Made by a program: the position numbers and the translations under genes
Shown: one piece after another, positions 399 through 7,828 of the stretch
Layout of the letters: each line of letters begins with the position of its first letter
How positions within the stretch are numbered: the stretch's first letter is position 1
Source: a virus
Lineage: Duplodnaviria > Heunggongvirae > Uroviricota > Caudoviricetes
IMG/VR virus record: IMGVR_UViG_3300000292_000107
DNA: 13,162 nucleotides
Strand: one strand, 5' to 3'
The notes under the pieces: model-generated
The model's database searches: none
What the model saw: the letters and a program-made list of their open reading frames with translations, nothing else
Told to the model about the DNA's origin: nothing

Positions 399-989
399 AT
401 GCGTAAAGTTTGTGCAGTCATTTTGTCCGCAGCCATCTGTCTGTCCGTATCCGGTGCGCCTGCATGGGCGTCTGAACATCAGTCCACACTGAGCGCGGGG
501 TATCTTCATGCCCGTACGAACGCTCCCGGCAGCGATAATCTGAACGGGATTAACGTGAAATACCGTTATGAGTTTACGGACGCGCTGGGGCTGATTACGT
601 CCTTCAGTTATGCCAATGCTGAGGATGAGCAAAAAACGCACTACAGCGATACCCGCTGGCATGAAGATTCCGTGCGTAACCGCTGGTTCAGCGTGATGGC
701 GGGGCCGTCTGTACGCGTGAATGAATGGTTCAGCGCGTATTCGATGGCGGGTGTGGCTTACAGCCGTGTGTCGACTTTCTCCGGGGATTATCTCCGCGTA
801 ACTGACAACAAGGGGAAAACGCACGATGTGNNNNNNNNNNGTCGCCACAGCAACACGTCTCTGGCGTGGGGGGCTGGCGTGCAGTTTAACCCGACCGAAT
901 CCGTGACCATTGACCTTGCTTATGAAGGTTCCGGTAGTGGCGACTGGCGAACGGATGCATTTATTGTTGGTATCGGATACCGTTTCTGA
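399..989 (+). CDS. lom: Lom/Ail/PagC-family outer-membrane beta-barrel protein (prophage lysogenic-conversion gene)
   Basis: 196-aa ORF with a signal-peptide-like N-terminus (MRKVCAVILSAAICLSVSGAPAWA), the family motif GINVKYRYE and the C-terminal YEGSGSGDWRTD...GIGYRF. SD GAGAGG lies upstream of the ATG. Ten Ns at 831-840 fall inside the ORF without breaking frame. Confidence 0.9.
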   Translation: MRKVCAVILSAAICLSVSGAPAWASEHQSTLSAGYLHARTNAPGSDNLNGINVKYRYEFTDALGLITSFSYANAEDEQKTHYSDTRWHEDSVRNRWFSVMAGPSVRVNEWFSAYSMAGVAYSRVSTFSGDYLRVTDNKGKTHDVXXXXRHSNTSLAWGAGVQFNPTESVTIDLAYEGSGSGDWRTDAFIVGIGYRF

Positions 990-1140: not shown

Positions 1141-3516
1141 ATGACAGTAAAAATTTCTGGCGTGCTTAAAGATGGCACAGGAAAACCAGTACAGAACTGC
1201 ACCATTGTGCTGAAGGCCAGACGAACCAGCAGCACGGTGGTGGTGAACACGGTGGCCTCTGAAAATCCGGATGAAGCCGGACGTTACAGCATGGATGTTG
1301 AGCATGGTCAGTACAGCGTCACCCTGCTGGTTGAAGGTTTTCCGCCTTCACATGCCGGGACCATTACCGTCTATGAAGGTTCCAGACCAGGTACGCTGAA
1401 TGATTTTCTCGGTGCCATGACGGAAGATGATGTCATGCCGGAGGCATTGCGTCGTTTTGAGGCAATGGTGGAAGAAGCGGCACGCAACGCCGAAGCCGCC
1501 TCTCAGAGCGCAGCGGCGGCAAAGAAATCCGAAACTGCAGCGGCATCATCGAAGAACGCAGCGAAAACCTCAGAAACGAATGCAGCTAATAGTGCACAGG
1601 CGGCAGCGACCTCAAAGACTGCATCGGCAAACTACGCGACAGCAGCCAAAAAATCAGAAACCAACGCGAAAAATAGCGAGACAGCCGCAAAGACGAGCGA
1701 AACCAACGCAAAGTCCAGCCAGACGGCAGCGAAGACCAGCGAAACGAATGCTAAAGCCAGTGAAACTGCAGCAAAAAACAGCCAGGTTTCAGCAGCCCAA
1801 AGCGAGAGTGCCGCTGCCGGTTCTGCGACTTCAGCTGCCGGATCAGCAACTGCTGCGGCTAACAGCCAGAAAGCTGCGAAGACGAGTGAAACTAACGCAA
1901 AGTCCAGCCAGACGGCAGCGAAGACCAGCGAAACGAATGCCAAAGCCAGCGAAACTGCGGCGAAAAACAGTCAGGATGCAGCAGCCCAAAGCGAGAGTGC
2001 CGCAGCTGGTTCTGCAAGTGCGGCGGCTTCTTCTGCCACTGCATCAGCCAACAGTCAAAAAGCTGCAAAAACCAGTGAAACCAACGCAAAGGCGAGCGAG
2101 ACTGCGGCGGCTAACTCGGCGAAAGCATCCGCTGCAAGCCAGACAGCAGCTAAAGCAAGTGAGGATGCAGCCAGAGAGTATGCAAGCCAGGCTGCGGAGC
2201 CGTATAAACAAGTATTGCAGCCGCTTCCTGATGTGTGGATACCATTTAACGATTCACTGGATATGATTACGGGGTTTTCGCCGTCATATAAAAAGATTGT
2301 TATTGGTGATGATGAAATAACGATGCCTGGCGATAAGGTTGTAAAGTTTAAACGCGCATCGAAAGCAACCTATATTAATAAATCTGGTGTGCTGACAGAG
2401 GCTGCCATTGACGAGCCACGATTTGAACGTGATGGCCTGCTTATTGAGGGGCAAAGAACAAACTACATGCTCAATTCGGAAAGCCCTGCCAGTTGGGGGC
2501 GATCGTCAAATATGGATGTGCCCGAAACAGGGACGGATAATTTTGGTTTTACCTATGGAAAGTTTGTCTGCAACGATTCTCTGATTGGGCAAACCTCAGC
2601 CATTAATATGGCATCAATTGCTGCAACAAAGTCAGTTGATGTCTCAGGCGATAATAAACACGTGACAACCTCATGTCGTTTTAAAACAGAACTGCAGGTA
2701 AGGTTGCGTATCCGGTTTGATAAATATGACGGTAGCGCAACAACTTTTCTTGGTGATGCGTATATTGATACACAAACGCTTGAAATTAATATGACAGGCG
2801 GTGCTGCCTCAAGGATTACAGCGAGAGTCAGAAAGGACGAAGCTACCGGATGGATTTTTGCAGAGGCAACAATTCAGGCAATTGATGGGGAGTTAAAAAT
2901 AGGTTCTCAGATACAGTATTCTCCTAAGCAGGGCGGGGCAACCGTATCTGGTGACTATATTTATCTGGCCACCCCACAAGTAGAAAATGGGCCTTGTGTA
3001 TCATCTTTTATTATATCAGGAACGACGGCGGCGACCCGCGCAAGCGATATAGTTACAGTTCCCATTAAGAATAATCTTTATAATCTTCCTTTTACGGTTC
3101 TTTGTGAGGTACATAAGAACTGGTATAAAACGCCAAATGCAGCGCCGCGTGTTTTTGATACCGGCGGTCATCAAACCGGAGCGGCTATTATTCTTGGGTT
3201 CGGATCTGCGGCAGATGGGCCAGACGGATTTCCTTATTGCGATATTGGAGGAGCTAACAGACGGGTAAACGAAAACGCATCGCTTGAAAAAATGGTTATG
3301 GGGATGCGTGTAAAATCAGATCAGTCTACGTGCTCAGTAAGTAACGGGCGCATATCCAGCGAAAAAAAGACTACGTGGTCCTATATTCAGAACTCTGCAA
3401 CCATCCGTATTGGAGGCCAGACTACAGCAGGGTCACGTCATTTATTTGGTCATATCAGGAATTTCAGAATATGGCACAAGGCATTGACTGATGCTCAGGT
3501 GGGGGAGTCAATCTAA
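1141..3516 (+). CDS. stf: Side tail fibre protein (Stf-like) with lambda-like N-terminal anchor, Ala/Ser/Thr/Lys-rich repeat shaft and a divergent C-terminal LamG/ConA-like domain
   Basis: 791-aa ORF. The first ~110 aa (MTVKISGVLKDGTGKPVQNCTI...GRYSMDVEHGQYSV...FPPSHAGTITVYE) resemble the lambda Stf N-terminus as I recall it. The middle is built of KTSETNAK-type repeats. The C-terminus ends LFGHIRNFRIWHKALTDAQV, which looks like a laminin-G/ConA-like jelly-roll terminus. Position after lom matches lambda. Confidence 0.85.
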   Translation: MTVKISGVLKDGTGKPVQNCTIVLKARRTSSTVVVNTVASENPDEAGRYSMDVEHGQYSVTLLVEGFPPSHAGTITVYEGSRPGTLNDFLGAMTEDDVMPEALRRFEAMVEEAARNAEAASQSAAAAKKSETAAASSKNAAKTSETNAANSAQAAATSKTASANYATAAKKSETNAKNSETAAKTSETNAKSSQTAAKTSETNAKASETAAKNSQVSAAQSESAAAGSATSAAGSATAAANSQKAAKTSETNAKSSQTAAKTSETNAKASETAAKNSQDAAAQSESAAAGSASAAASSATASANSQKAAKTSETNAKASETAAANSAKASAASQTAAKASEDAAREYASQAAEPYKQVLQPLPDVWIPFNDSLDMITGFSPSYKKIVIGDDEITMPGDKVVKFKRASKATYINKSGVLTEAAIDEPRFERDGLLIEGQRTNYMLNSESPASWGRSSNMDVPETGTDNFGFTYGKFVCNDSLIGQTSAINMASIAATKSVDVSGDNKHVTTSCRFKTELQVRLRIRFDKYDGSATTFLGDAYIDTQTLEINMTGGAASRITARVRKDEATGWIFAEATIQAIDGELKIGSQIQYSPKQGGATVSGDYIYLATPQVENGPCVSSFIISGTTAATRASDIVTVPIKNNLYNLPFTVLCEVHKNWYKTPNAAPRVFDTGGHQTGAAIILGFGSAADGPDGFPYCDIGGANRRVNENASLEKMVMGMRVKSDQSTCSVSNGRISSEKKTTWSYIQNSATIRIGGQTTAGSRHLFGHIRNFRIWHKALTDAQVGESI
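1640..2110 (+). repeat. Nested in-frame tandem repeats inside stf: two full 189-bp units plus partial flanking copies, built from 24-27-bp sub-repeats
   Basis: Unit 1 at about 1691-1879 and unit 2 at about 1880-2068 are near-identical (anchors AAGTCCAGCCAGACGGCAGCGAAGACCAGCGAAACGAATGC at 1711 and 1900; GCAGCCCAAAGCGAGAGTGCCGC at 1792 and 1981). The period of 189 nt is 63 codons. Confidence 0.85.
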
Positions 3517-3797
3517 TGAAAGATTTAACACTCAAATTTGCCGACAGGGCCGACTTTTCGGCCTTTATGGAGAGTGCTGGCTATTATGATGACGAGTCGA
3601 TGCAGGATGATATTCTTATTGACGTGATAGGTAACGTGTACAAAGAAACCGGAGAACTTACTGAAGATGGCGAGCCGGTATGTGTTAAGGAAGACGGATA
3701 TTTTGTAAACGTGCGCATCATTAATGATGTGAAAACACCGTCAATATTCGATGAATACGTGGTTGCTGTTGAGCATCAACTTCGTGGCTGGATGTGA
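3516..3797 (+). CDS. Hypothetical acidic 93-aa protein, translationally coupled to stf
   Basis: Its ATG overlaps the stf stop (TAATG at 3514-3518). The ORF stops 9 nt before the next gene. I recognise no domain. Confidence 0.55.
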   Translation: MKDLTLKFADRADFSAFMESAGYYDDESMQDDILIDVIGNVYKETGELTEDGEPVCVKEDGYFVNVRIINDVKTPSIFDEYVVAVEHQLRGWM

Positions 3798-3806
3798 GGA
3801 AGAATA

Positions 3807-4847
3807 ATGGCTACATCGACAGTAATTCCTGATGACATCAAAACGCTAAAATCCGATGTTAGCAAATTAAAAAACGATCAAGGAAGCTACGTAACAAAAT
3901 CATATGTAGACAGCAAAAATGAAACCGTTAATGACTGGTCTGCTGCATGGTATCAGCAGGTACTGCCAACTAGCGGAGCTATATTTGGGCGAAAACTTCG
4001 CTCAACTCACAGGACGGCAGGTGTTGAGGATGCGTATTGCGAACTATACCTCAAAAAATGGATAGACAGTCCAGGTAACGCAATGGCGCGCCTTAACCTG
4101 AACGATAACGGGACAAACATTTGCTGGGACTTTACCAACCTTTATGGCGGTACGATGATTTTTCCCGGTGACAGCGGATACCTCAAAATGGGTAACTGCC
4201 TTATGTCATACAGCAAGCGTGGAAGTAACGCGCTTATTAAATTTGATTACACCGACACATTACAGATCAAATATGCCAATCATGGGTCAACCATGACATT
4301 AAACACACAGGGAACCGCTTATGCTGGTGTTACTGCTCAATTGTGGGGCAACTCCAGCCGTCCTGTTGTTTATGAAGTCGGTGTTGATGGTGGCGCTTAT
4401 ATGTTCTATGCGCAGAAAAATACCGATAACACCTATATGTTAAGCGTTAATGGTGCATGTCATGCCACCGCATTTAACCAGCATTCCGACCGGGATCTGA
4501 AAGACAACATTCAGGTGATCGATAATGCAACCGACCGCATCCGTAAAATGAACGGCTATACATACACGCTTAAAGAAAACGGTATGCCCTATGCTGGTGT
4601 CATTGCACAGGAAGCTCTGGAAGCAATCCCAGAAGTTGTAGGTTCCGCAATGAAATATCAGGACGGTGCAAGCGGATCGGAAGGTGAAGAAGGTGAACGT
4701 TATTACACAGTAGATTATTCTGGTGTTACTGGCTTGCTTGTTCAGGTAGCCAGAGAGTCAGACGACAGAATAACAGCACTGGAAGAAGAAAACGCAGAAT
4801 TAAGACAAAGATTATCTGCAATTGAGGCGGCGCTTGCGTCTAAATAA
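3807..4847 (+). CDS. Tail fibre/tailspike-like protein with C-terminal peptidase-S74 intramolecular chaperone domain
   Basis: 346-aa ORF with SD GAGGAAG upstream. The C-terminal ~120 aa begin SDRDLKDNI (Ser at codon 227, nt 4485-4487, with Lys five residues later), then NGYTYTLKENGMPYAGVIAQEALEAIPEVV...YYTVDYSGVTGLL and a terminal coiled-coil (ITALEEENAELRQRLSAIEAAL). This matches the autoproteolytic chaperone domain of endosialidase and T5 pb1-type fibres. Confidence 0.75.
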   Translation: MATSTVIPDDIKTLKSDVSKLKNDQGSYVTKSYVDSKNETVNDWSAAWYQQVLPTSGAIFGRKLRSTHRTAGVEDAYCELYLKKWIDSPGNAMARLNLNDNGTNICWDFTNLYGGTMIFPGDSGYLKMGNCLMSYSKRGSNALIKFDYTDTLQIKYANHGSTMTLNTQGTAYAGVTAQLWGNSSRPVVYEVGVDGGAYMFYAQKNTDNTYMLSVNGACHATAFNQHSDRDLKDNIQVIDNATDRIRKMNGYTYTLKENGMPYAGVIAQEALEAIPEVVGSAMKYQDGASGSEGEEGERYYTVDYSGVTGLLVQVARESDDRITALEEENAELRQRLSAIEAALASK

Positions 4848-4853
4848 TATCAA

Positions 4854-4876
4854 GGGGCCGAGCGCCCCGTTTTATT
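4854..4876 (+). terminator. Candidate rho-independent terminator ending the fibre operon
   Basis: GGGGC (4854-4858) pairs with GCCCC (4864-4868) around a 5-nt loop, followed by TTTT at 4870-4873. Confidence 0.5.
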
Positions 4877-4889
4877 GGGTAGGATGAAA

Positions 4890-5177
4890 ATGGATATAAC
4901 ACCTTTCCTTCATGCGCTTTGTGCTGTGGCTGCGCAGCTACTGATTGGTCTTTTTACCGGGAACTGGGCTTACGGGGCGATAGCCGGTTGTACGTTCTTC
5001 ATTGCGCGTGAACACACCCAGGCAGAATATCGCTGGATTGAAATGTTTGGGCATGGCAAGAGGATTAACATGCCGTGGTGGGGCGGTTTTGATCCGCGCG
5101 TGTGGGATGTGGCAAGCCTGATGGATTTTGCTGTGCCGGTGGTGGCGTGTCTGCTGATCTGGATGTTGATCCGTTAA
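4890..5177 (+). CDS. Small hydrophobic membrane protein of unknown function (prophage moron)
   Basis: The track ORF starts at a TTG (4875). In-frame ATGs lie at 4884 and 4890; AGGA at 4881-4884 is well spaced for 4890. The protein has two or three predicted hydrophobic helices (FLHALCAVAAQLLIGLF, AIAGCTFFIA, FAVPVVACLLIWMLI). Confidence 0.55.
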   Translation: MDITPFLHALCAVAAQLLIGLFTGNWAYGAIAGCTFFIAREHTQAEYRWIEMFGHGKRINMPWWGGFDPRVWDVASLMDFAVPVVACLLIWMLIR

Positions 5178-5180
5178 ATA

Positions 5181-5227
5181 TAAAAAGTAAAAAGCCGCAG
5201 TAACTTGTCATGATAGGATACTGCGGC
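5181..5227 (-). terminator. Candidate terminator for the dinI-like gene
   Basis: 9-bp stem GCCGCAGTA (5194-5202) / TACTGCGGC (5219-5227) around a 16-nt loop; on the minus strand it is followed by a T-rich run (complement of 5181-5193). The large loop is atypical. Confidence 0.4.
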
Positions 5228-5294
5228 TGGCTGGTTAACTTTCGATAGTGCGAGTATTGAATGATTTCCAGCCGTTACTGATTTTACGTGCTAA

Positions 5295-5543
5295 TTAGTG
5301 AACAAACCACTCGTCAGCAGACTCCCAGGTATCTTTCAGAGTTTCCTGAACAAAAGTTTTAGCTGAATCTTTATCGGCGGTGCGCGTAACAGAAAGGCCA
5401 TCGTTGCTGGTGGCTTTTACGATCACCTCTACATCGTCATAACGTTTACTGATGCGTCGGGTTAATTCTTCCTTTAACGCATCCACAGCACCGTTTGGCA
5501 TTTTAGTCATTTTTTCTTTGGCTATGCAGATCTCAATACGCAT
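5295..5543 (-). CDS. dinI: DinI-family protein (SOS-inducible RecA modulator homologue, prophage-encoded)
   Basis: 82-aa [12 protein letters not shown]...[13 protein letters not shown]...LSV...[16 protein letters not shown] shares the conserved blocks of E. coli DinI as I recall it. SD GAGGGA lies 6 nt upstream and two LexA boxes immediately upstream of that. Confidence 0.85.
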
Positions 5544-5556
5544 AAAAGTCCCTCTA

Positions 5557-5576
5557 TACTGTGTTTGTATACAGTA
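5557..5576 (-). promoter_or_regulatory. LexA box 1 (SOS operator) proximal to the dinI-like start
   Basis: TACTGTGTTTGTATACAGTA fits the CTGT-N8-ACAG consensus with AT-rich spacer; it lies 14 nt upstream of the dinI ATG. Confidence 0.8.
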
Positions 5577-5584
5577 TTATTTTT

Positions 5585-5604
5585 AACTGTATGGATAAAC
5601 AGTG
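5585..5604 (-). promoter_or_regulatory. LexA box 2, directly abutting the integrase stop codon
   Basis: AACTGTATGGATAAACAGTG fits CTGT-N8-ACAG. It is 28 bp centre-to-centre from box 1 and ends 1 nt before the int stop (5605-5607). Confidence 0.7.
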
Positions 5605-6702
5605 TCAAGAGGTCTTATTTCTGCTCCTTTGGAGCTCTTCAAAACGATTATGTAAAGATTTCGGATACAGTTCGGTATATACCTGCCATAGCACGTTTAA
5701 TGAACGATGCCCTGTAACCTGAGCGACTTCCTCAATACTAAAACCAGCCTCAAATAAGCGACTTGCCCCTTCTCTACGCAAATCATGGTATCGCAGATCT
5801 TTAATACCTAATTTGCTTCTTACCCTCTGAAATCCTGCAGTAACAGAAGTGCTGTTATATGGAAAAATGAATTCCGATTTTTTGGGCTGTCGTTGGACGA
5901 TATCCCAGGCTTCCCCAAGCAAGGCTACTTTCATGTGGTTGCCTTCCTTTTTGCGTGGATCTTTCCTGTCTCTTACGAGTATAGATTTTTGTTCCTGGTC
6001 GAGATCTTCCCATCGTAACCGGCATACTTCTCCGATCCGCATACAGGACCACACAGAAAATTTGAGGATATCAACGAACGGAATTTTTGAGCATTTATGA
6101 GTAGATCGTTGTTGAAGGCCTTCAATGAGCATGTCCAGTTCATCAGATGCTGGTCTACGATTCCGACGGTTTGATTTACCAATCAAACCAAGTTTAAGTA
6201 GATATGGGCGAGCGCTTTTCGCCGGGTTTGATGTGTAATTAATTCCGTATACAGGTTTGGCCGCATCCAGAACACTGCCAAGATAACTAACATCGTGGCT
6301 GACTGTTGCTGGACCTGCACCAGCGTTGTTTCTTAGCCTGCAATGTTCAATTACGTCATTTTCTGTCAGTTCAGATAGTTTGATCGCGGAGATGTCACTA
6401 TCCATAAGCAGTTCCAGCACATATCTTTTAGTACGGCCTGCTTTACCTCCGGCATTTGGGTCATTTAAATATTTGTGTAGTAAGTCACGGACTGTAAGTC
6501 CGTCAACTGGATTTGATGATGGAATGCCATATAGATCTAATTCCATCACTTTCTGTGTTCCCCATGTTTTGGCATGAGCATGTTTAGGGAATGTTTTGCT
6601 TTCCCTGTAAGTGATAACACCTTTTTCTTTGATAATCACATTACAGCGATAGCGTGGTGTGCCATCGGATTTTAGTCGTTTCTCTATGTTATAGTACGCC
6701 AT
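5605..6702 (-). CDS. int: Tyrosine recombinase / phage integrase (dusA-associated integrase type)
   Basis: 365-aa ORF with tyrosine-recombinase catalytic signatures in the C-terminal half (R in CMRIGEVCRLRWEDL; YHDLRREGAS box; GHRSLNVLWQVY with the catalytic Tyr). SD GAGG upstream. It lies divergent to, and 88 bp from, the dusA start. Confidence 0.9.
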   Translation of the reverse strand: MAYYNIEKRLKSDGTPRYRCNVIIKEKGVITYRESKTFPKHAHAKTWGTQKVMELDLYGIPSSNPVDGLTVRDLLHKYLNDPNAGGKAGRTKRYVLELLMDSDISAIKLSELTENDVIEHCRLRNNAGAGPATVSHDVSYLGSVLDAAKPVYGINYTSNPAKSARPYLLKLGLIGKSNRRNRRPASDELDMLIEGLQQRSTHKCSKIPFVDILKFSVWSCMRIGEVCRLRWEDLDQEQKSILVRDRKDPRKKEGNHMKVALLGEAWDIVQRQPKKSEFIFPYNSTSVTAGFQRVRSKLGIKDLRYHDLRREGASRLFEAGFSIEEVAQVTGHRSLNVLWQVYTELYPKSLHNRFEELQRSRNKTS

Positions 6703-6790: not shown

Positions 6791-7828
6791 ATGCACGATA
6801 ATCATGAAACACAAAAAATTAATCAAACCAGCGTGATGCCTGAAAAAACTGGTGTTTACTGGAATTCTCGGTTTAGCATTGCTCCTATGCTTGACTGGAC
6901 GGACAGACATTGCCGTTATTTCTTGCGTCTGCTTTCCCGCAATACGTTGCTGTATACCGAAATGGTGACCACAGGGGCGATTATTCACGGTAAAGGTGAT
7001 TACCTGGCGTACAGTGAAGAAGAACATCCGGTAGCGTTGCAACTCGGGGGTAGCGATCCGGCGGCGCTGGCACAGTGTGCGAAGCTGGCAGAAGCGCGTG
7101 GATACGATGAGATCAACCTGAATGTCGGCTGCCCGTCTGACCGGGTGCAGAACGGCATGTTTGGTGCGTGTCTGATGGGTAATGCGCAGCTGGTTGCCGA
7201 CTGCGTGAAAGCGATGCGCGATGTGGTGTCGATTCCGGTGACGGTGAAAACGCGTATTGGCATCGATGATCAGGACAGCTATGAATTTCTCTGCGATTTC
7301 ATCAACACCGTTTCCGGCAAAGGTGAGTGTGAGATGTTCATCATCCACGCACGTAAAGCCTGGCTTTCTGGGTTAAGTCCGAAAGAAAACCGTGAGATCC
7401 CGCCTCTCGATTATCCGCGTGTGTATCAACTGAAGCGTGACTTTCCGCATCTGACGATGTCGATTAACGGTGGTATCAAGTCGCTGGAAGAAGCTAAAGC
7501 GCATTTGCAACATATGGATGGCGTGATGGTCGGGCGCGAGGCGTATCAGAATCCGGGGATTCTGGCGGCGGTAGACCGAGAGATTTTTGGTTCCTCGGAT
7601 ACCGATGCCGATCCGGTGGCGGTAGTGCGCGCCATGTATCCGTACATTGAGCGTGAACTCAGCCAGGGTACGTATCTCGGCCATATTACCCGGCATATGC
7701 TGGGCTTGTTCCAGGGTATTCCTGGCGCGCGGCAGTGGCGGCGTTATTTAAGTGAAAATGCCCATAAAGCGGGTGCAGACATTAATGTGCTGGAACACGC
7801 GCTCAAACTGGTAGCGGATAAGCGTTAA
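6791..7828 (+). CDS. dusA: tRNA-dihydrouridine synthase A
   Basis: 345-aa ORF with the Dus-family FMN-binding core ([32 protein letters not shown]) as recalled for enterobacterial DusA. No clear SD at 6791; an in-frame ATG at 6836 (MPEKT...) is an alternative start. Confidence 0.9.

Follow-up and report, generated by a model that had tools for sequence, protein, structure and literature searches.

A short open reading frame directly behind a tail fibre gene, close to an integrase gene, raises the question of what kind of gene it is: an autonomous piece of prophage cargo or a part of the module that it follows, with a product that serves either the virion or the cell. We addressed this question in a window of 13,162 nucleotides of tailed-virus DNA (by the window we mean the whole stretch that was analysed), for which an initial annotation had proposed a small membrane protein encoded by a stand-alone unit. 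The features of the window that bear on the question are collected in Table 1.

Table 1. Features around the membrane-protein gene (positions in the window; cells are empty where nothing was reported).
Feature	Position	Strand	Basis or remark
lom	399-989		first in listed gene order
stf-like side-tail-fibre gene	1141-3516	+	phage_tail_N N-terminal domain, Pfam PF08400, E=1.2e-67; left end of fibre module
hyp93, 93-aa acidic soluble protein	3516-3797	+	PHROG 1361, related to PHROG 18574
Tail fibre with C-terminal Peptidase_S74 intramolecular-chaperone domain	3807-4847	+	Pfam PF13884, E=4.8e-14
Short hairpin	4854-4868, with U-rich tail to 4876	+	terminator scan; 5 GC pairs followed by UUUUAUU
SD-like AGGA	4881-4884	+	5 nt ahead of ATG 4890; read from sequence
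ORF 4890-5177, predicted membrane protein	4890-5177	+	RefSeq CDS WP_021549777.1; stop codon at 5175-5177
Strong hairpin	5193-5228	-	z -4.3 and -4.0 on the two strands folded
'Capsid protein' pseudogene scrap	5218-5298		81 nt, partial, internal stop; RefSeq, identical E. coli record
dinI-like gene	5295-5543	-	
Tyrosine integrase (int)	5605-6702	-	
dusA (host)	6791-7828	+	

The gene order given by RefSeq and Pfam agrees with the location initially described, between a fibre gene and the dinI-like gene near int, and the product of the gene directly 5' of the frame is named 'tail fiber domain-containing protein' by RefSeq. The integrase gene abuts dusA, beyond which lie other host genes (pspG, qorA and others), and the region is therefore a lambdoid prophage integrated at dusA. 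The RefSeq record used for comparison is an E. coli chromosome with 100% identity to the window over 4700-5700, and in this identical prophage no endolysin is annotated from gpJ to int. A scrap of a 'capsid protein' pseudogene sits between the frame and the dinI-like gene, where it overlaps the strong hairpin. The small gene between the two fibre genes, hyp93, trails side or lateral tail fibre genes in temperate phages as well as in virulent Drexlerviridae, Dhillonvirus, T5-like and rV5-like phages, and its product is likely a fibre accessory or chaperone.

ORF 4890-5177 is a coding sequence for a 95-aa predicted three-helix membrane protein, and it is a real gene under purifying selection. 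The in-frame start candidates are TTG 4875, ATG 4884 and ATG 4890; when the window is aligned with phage 21, the P22-like phage Gally, the phage-plasmid PhiR41_1 and PhiR47_1, similarity sets in at ATG 4890 and fades over the last ~12 codons, the DNA 5' of this ATG being unrelated. The protein is therefore 95 residues long. The starts ATG 4884 and TTG 4875 were rejected, as the conserved block does not reach them. In phage 21, Gally and PhiR41_1, too, a purine-rich SD-like stretch comes just before the conserved ATG, and RefSeq places a CDS for a 'hypothetical protein' at exactly these coordinates. Across 53 distinct alleles (1334 allele pairs) the mean dN is 0.029 and the mean dS 0.155, with dN/dS ~0.18. 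The composition is foreign relative to the neighbouring genes (52.8% GC vs 42.9-49.0% for stf, hyp93, the S74 fibre gene, dinI and int). An overlapping RNA or DNA element in the conserved core was considered and dropped, synonymous diversity being uniformly low along the whole gene, and an Rfam scan of 4500-5800 gave no RNA family.

The two hairpins that flank the gene had been taken for its own terminators, an assignment that does not survive closer inspection. The 5' hairpin begins 7 nt past the stop codon of the S74 fibre gene and folds at -11.9 kcal/mol (z -0.8 vs shuffles, i.e. no better than shuffled sequence); it is the weak terminator-like end of the fibre gene and no element of ORF 4890-5177. 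The 3' hairpin is followed by a U-tract in the minus-strand RNA only (on the plus strand it is preceded by an A-tract, and no U-tract follows), and it therefore terminates the convergent dinI-like/int transcript. The terminator scan found no plus-strand terminator 3' of the ORF, and a consensus scan found no sigma-70-like site in the 42-nt gap 5' of it, a non-canonical promoter being possible. The nearest promoter-like site (4497-4526) lies within the fibre gene, in a region where such matches are no more numerous than in shuffled sequence. No promoter was found for the gene in phage 21 either; only in Gally is it preceded by a terminator and then a 240-nt AT-rich spacer with one weak promoter candidate.

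In other phages the homologue is often translationally coupled to a receptor-binding protein gene on the same strand. It lies ~10-12 nt past a 92-aa gene in phage 21 and PhiR41_1, and its start overlaps the stop of a tailspike or fibre-assembly gene in JEP4 and phiHAP-1. With no promoter in the gap and with such abutting or overlapping neighbours, the description of the gene as a stand-alone unit had to be given up: ORF 4890-5177 looks like the last cistron of a late fibre transcript rather than an autonomous unit. Because a ribosome-binding site is present but no promoter is detectable, the ORF is most likely made from the tail-fibre transcript, which would read through the weak 5' hairpin. 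Compared with what is expected of a moron, the scans of the window found neither a promoter nor a terminator belonging to the gene; the gene is absent from related modules (those of the phages tunzivis and IrisVonRoten), and its GC content is deviant. Among otherwise unrelated phages, similarity is limited to the ORF itself.

The ORF product matches PHROG 1443 over its full length (E=7e-58, 193.8 bits, residues 1-95 on profile positions 1-95 of 97), a family of unknown function and the sole database family that matches. The initial statement that the protein cannot be placed in a family is thus right as regards characterised families and wrong as regards this one. Neither Pfam (E<=1) nor NCBIfam gave a match, be it to a housekeeping family or to GtrA or acyltransferase families; none of the defence HMMs of PADLOC-DB matched at E<=1, a sequence profile search of the PDB yielded a chance match only (E=0.5), and fold searches returned generic helical bundles only. 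A profile search of 1.84 billion cluster representatives recovered at least 445 clusters at 50% identity, the best 150 of which hold stand-alone proteins of ~60-146 aa that are unnamed, unfused and free of Pfam domains, and a search seeded with distant members again returned only unnamed, Pfam-less proteins. The gene is carried by 2068 of 5426 complete E. coli genomes (38%; median copy number 2, maximum 8), always as a 'hypothetical protein', and by 73 phage records. In a one-genome-per-species collection the carriers include Escherichia, Leclercia, Silvania, Pantoea, Aeromonas, Comamonas, Acidovorax, Pigmentiphaga, Halomonas, sphingomonads, Devosia, Chelativorans and Desulfovibrio. A literature search by identifiers, motif strings and context found no description of the family, which is thus known as a sequence ('hypothetical' in every database) while nothing was found on it as a described entity in the literature searched.

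The expectation of a ~95-aa protein with two or three hydrophobic helices is borne out by the reading frame, by the RefSeq CDS and by an AlphaFold2 model (pLDDT 94.8, from a 46-sequence alignment) with helices at residues 4-23, 26-53 and 74-94. The hydrophobic stretches cover residues ~5-23, 26-39 (weaker) and 74-94; the second half of helix 2 and residues 54-73 form a polar, aromatic-rich mini-domain, and the product ends 1 residue past helix 3. The loop between helices 2 and 3 is compact and nearly invariant (REHTQAEYRWI...GKRxNMPWWGGF). Among 46 aligned close relatives, 21 positions are invariant: R40, E41, Q44, A45, E46, Y47, R48, W49, G56, R58, P62, W64, G65, G66, F67 and W72 in the loop region, and D2, H8, Q16, G29 and P83 outside it. 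Even in members only 25-45% mutually identical, H8, R40, E41 and W71 remain invariant and Q44, E46, R57, D79 and P83 are kept at >=90% (numbering of that alignment's first sequence). The invariant His8 is predicted to lie on the same membrane face as the conserved loop. The identity between E. coli members and those of Aeromonas or Comamonas is ~60%. Three variants (P0144, P0190 and P0249) reach 140-146 aa through a ~45-aa acidic, aromatic-rich insertion within the conserved loop, between the EYRWIExFG and MPWWGGF segments. The topology prediction called for initially was carried out on 216 homologues: the K+R count averages 5.9 in the N-terminal tail and loop vs 0.7 in the helix 1-2 turn and C-terminal tail, from which the positive-inside rule predicts a cytoplasmic N-terminus and loop and an outward-facing C-terminus. 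On these models the product would be a three-helix membrane protein, placed by prediction in the inner membrane.

The genes that surround the homologues show what is constant about the position. Among 80 close relatives in IMG/VR, a stf-like fibre gene lies upstream in 78, usually with hyp93 and/or an S74 fibre gene in between; hyp93 occupies that interval in most of the 80. A dinI- or int-like gene was seen downstream in only 11, many records ending shortly past the ORF. The order is stf, 92-aa gene, ORF homologue in phage 21 and PhiR41_1; tailspike, homologue, int in the P22-like Gally and JEP4; and fibre or fibre-assembly gene, homologue, sheath gene in the P2-like phiHAP-1 and in locus L161. 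In Comamonas, Chelativorans and Desulfovibrio the homologue follows a tail protein or tailspike gene with gaps of 0 to -4 nt, the Comamonas order being tail protein, hyp93-like gene, homologue. A tail gene is recognisable within 2.5 kb upstream at no fewer than 16 of 63 species-level loci, a figure that is only a lower bound on the fibre linkage given the limited seed set; a conserved downstream partner gene was looked for at these various loci and none was found. What the phage types have in common is the link of the gene with the 3' end of the receptor-binding-protein module, not with int. The initial view of accessory cargo in a variable region next to int therefore keeps its first half, since small membrane cargo does lie next to int here, and loses its second, the constant link being with the receptor-binding module. 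Conservation in related prophages is strong, and on that ground the gene stands. Our best reading is that ORF 4890-5177 is the terminal gene of the side-tail-fibre (receptor-binding) module of a lambdoid prophage at dusA.

Several observations accompany this linkage. In two prophages of Comamonas nitrativorans and Pigmentiphaga that carry diversity-generating retroelements (L117 and L119, ~4785-6690), the homologue lies between an Mtd-like tail protein gene and bAvd, and therefore inside the target region of the retroelement. In phage 21 (L002 6386-9835), an opposite-strand sitABCD iron/manganese transporter operon is carried as cargo past the gene. The DNA of the ORF itself (window 4890-5140 compared with L002, L005 and L008) is ~80-100% identical despite unrelated flanks. 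The ORF and the conserved N-terminal domain of stf bracket the variable fibre cassette, and homologous recombination anchored in the ORF could allow modules to be exchanged; the position of the ORF at the right-hand edge of a hypervariable fibre cassette is also a landmark for delimiting receptor-binding modules.

The fibre module can do without the gene. In the virulent phages tunzivis (Drexlerviridae) and IrisVonRoten (T5-like), the module consists of fibre, hyp93 and fibre genes, with no membrane ORF annotated after it. In HC6-like virulent siphophages, a 51-codon frame-broken remnant directly follows an S74-type tailspike gene; it keeps the PWWGGF region and has lost the N-terminal part, including helices 1-2 and an intact REH motif. 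This remnant is unannotated in Escherichia phage HC6 (L169 3465-3620), and likewise in ST1UNAM, ZCEC08 and PBM-3. The gene thus moves together with fibre modules; the fibres do not need it, and it has decayed in one virulent lineage at least. Intact copies are found in virulent Aeromonas jumbo phages, distant from the fibre genes.

A large share of the family is chromosomal, from which we infer that the protein works in cells by itself. The Aeromonas locus (L160 6990-11645; also L094, L096, L098 and L100) is conserved, chromosomal and non-prophage: a pirin gene is followed by the homologue and then by a convergent RIO1/Kdo-kinase-like gene and two lipid A acyltransferase genes. The Leclercia copy has a Peptidase_M3 gene on one side and MetE-like and urea-transporter-like genes on the other, the Silvania copy adjoins a porin gene and a pyruvate:flavodoxin oxidoreductase gene, and alphaproteobacterial copies (including those of sphingomonads) adjoin ligA and other housekeeping genes. 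Other chromosomal neighbours across the species-level loci are ftsZ, thiC and a prlC-like peptidase gene.

What the protein does has to be judged from these patterns. Linkage to receptor-binding modules across unrelated architectures, dispensability for the fibre, orphan chromosomal copies and foreign GC all speak for a role in the host, and the target of the ORF product is probably the host cell rather than the virion. The explanation that we consider best, at a probability of roughly 0.38, is that this terminal gene of the fibre module encodes a host-acting inner-membrane protein of the superinfection-exclusion type, like HK97 gp15 and P22 SieA, which would interfere with an envelope-crossing step of incoming phages. 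It is favoured because this is the best-precedented activity for such a host-acting membrane protein. Exclusion or immunity, as suggested initially, may be regarded as a reasonable guess. Against it, no promoter was detected, whereas expression from the prophage is a hallmark of gp15 and SieA, and in several distant phages the gene lies 1-3 small genes upstream of an endolysin. The conservation of the family, at the identity and with the invariant positions given above, is also unlike that of known, fast-diverging exclusion proteins; the pattern is better explained by a site that binds a ligand or resembles that of an enzyme, or by a host target that is itself conserved, than by an arms-race protein. 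As the family rides behind very different receptor-binding proteins, it cannot be receptor-specific. It is this combination of a conserved loop and unrelated fibres that holds the exclusion reading to the figure given.

Some of these facts would sit more easily with other explanations. Conservation of this kind, the spread of the family over at least 445 clusters, the many species-level loci that are chromosomal (with ligA, ftsZ, thiC, pirin, prlC-like peptidase and porin genes as neighbours) and the intact jumbo-phage copies away from fibre genes would all suit a cellular small membrane protein of general physiology, taken up by phages as host-derived cargo and playing no direct part in phage-phage conflict; membrane homeostasis, cofactor or metal binding and immunity to a membrane-damaging toxin are options for such a role. 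We consider this unlikely, for it leaves unexplained both why the gene recurs, in no fewer than five phage architectures, on the same strand right behind receptor-binding genes and why it has decayed in the virulent HC6-like phages, and no conserved chromosomal partner gene indicates a pathway. A further explanation would make the protein a factor in tail-fibre assembly or a component of the virion. The homologues are always co-oriented with the fibre genes and often coupled to them in translation, but the product is a predicted integral membrane protein, homologous fibre modules of virulent phages work without the gene, a decayed remnant persists in HC6, orphan copies exist on chromosomes, and the ORF sequence stays constant while the fibres vary; these points disfavour this explanation, which strikes us as highly improbable.

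The remaining two explanations also start from the membrane. That the protein belongs to lysis, as a holin, an antiholin or a lysis-timing factor of or with the lysis cassette, is rather unlikely in our judgement, despite a size and three hydrophobic helices like those of class I holins and despite distant members at a tail/lysis junction: there the homologue is followed by a 91-aa gene and a muramidase (L163), by 77-aa and 123-aa genes and a GH19 enzyme (L165), by three small genes and a Phage_lysozyme (L166) or by an 85-aa gene and a Peptidase_M15_3 (L168), and in Comamonadaceae prophages (L106, L108, L112 and L115) a lysozyme-like gene lies 114-661 nt downstream and is followed by spanins. 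Each of the Comamonadaceae cassettes, however, has another holin-like gene by the endolysin, these genes being non-homologous to the ORF and mutually unrelated (the one of L115 matches the holin family PHROG 920). Moreover, where lysis genes follow tail genes, the last gene of a fibre module adjoins the lysis cassette by default. No endolysin lies near the gene in the window, in phage 21 or in the P22-like and P2-like phages; the product lacks a charged C-terminal tail, none of the Pfam holin families matches it (E<=1), and the orphan chromosomal copies among housekeeping genes fit poorly with lysis. Quite unlikely, too, is a lysogenic-conversion factor that would alter the surface seen by fibres and tailspikes, either as a tiny membrane enzyme or by inhibiting or regulating a conserved step of envelope biosynthesis (for instance, the handling of undecaprenyl-linked glycans). 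The slot between tailspike and int in the P22-like Gally and JEP4 would suit such a factor, gtrABC or oac being the usual occupants of this slot in P22-like phages, and the gene is often found behind S74-type fibres or tailspikes, which typically bind polysaccharides. The invariant cluster of His, Arg, Glu, Tyr and Trp at one membrane face, with the invariant Gln in helix 1, resembles a binding or active site, and the Aeromonas chromosomal copy lies beside the Kdo-kinase-like (RIO1) and lipid A acyltransferase genes. Yet these Aeromonas neighbours are convergent, and such a neighbourhood recurs nowhere else among the loci examined; no Pfam family resembles the product, GtrA, acyltransferases and PAP2 included; members occur in sphingomonads, which to our knowledge lack classical LPS; and the K+R bias puts the conserved loop, by prediction, in the cytoplasm, away from periplasmic glycan assembly.

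Exclusion at the inner membrane thus remains our preferred explanation, and it admits a more specific form, which we regard as doubtful: PHROG 1443 may be an unrecognised class of single-gene, receptor-binding-module-linked inner-membrane protectors, whose near-invariant loop would bind or modify a universally conserved membrane component (a lipid carrier or a translocation machine, for example) and so confer broad, receptor-independent exclusion of phages or tailocins. Such a class would be common to siphophages, myophages, podophages and bacterial chromosomes across Proteobacteria. The gene is usually present in two or more copies per carrying E. coli genome and is spread over phages with no fewer than four tail or genome architectures; should its product serve exclusion or immunity, it would be among the commonest prophage-borne barriers in E. 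coli. If true, this would bear on the prediction of phage host range and on the choice of therapeutic phages.

Among known systems, the closest likeness is with HK97 gp15, a small inner-membrane exclusion protein encoded within the tail operon, whose homologues are mostly chromosomal, non-prophage YebO proteins (PMC3594210). ORF 4890-5177 shares with it a small (here predicted) inner-membrane product, a place in a tail operon, many chromosomal non-prophage homologues and, as proposed here, an action directed at the host rather than the virion; it differs in that no promoter was found for it. With P22 SieA the likeness would lie in the mode of action, as we propose it. The types of SieA are <30% identical, whereas PHROG 1443 is highly conserved and occurs in siphophages, myophages and podophages alike, and the gene position also differs. 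T4 Imm, which inhibits DNA injection, and Cor of phi80 and N15, which inactivates the outer-membrane receptor FhuA (PMC11436027), are likewise small phage-encoded envelope proteins that stop superinfecting phages, as the ORF product may do; the Pfam, PHROG and PADLOC searches detected no homology to either. Cor is tied to one receptor, while our protein is predicted to reside in the inner membrane and is encoded behind many receptor-binding proteins. The gtrABC genes, a P22 prophage function, and oac share with the homologues of Gally and JEP4 the slot between tailspike and int, but the homologue is a single 95-aa gene on the tailspike strand with no Pfam match. Class I holins such as lambda S are similar in length (~100 aa), in their three hydrophobic helices and, in some distant phages, in a position just upstream of the endolysin. 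They differ from the ORF product, which lacks a charged C-terminal tail and a holin match and has a highly conserved soluble loop; the ORF is also far from lysis genes in the window, and the Comamonadaceae cassettes have a separate holin. Taken with these systems, the family is best classed as an unrelated addition to the phage-borne small membrane accessory proteins, which are themselves a known kind.
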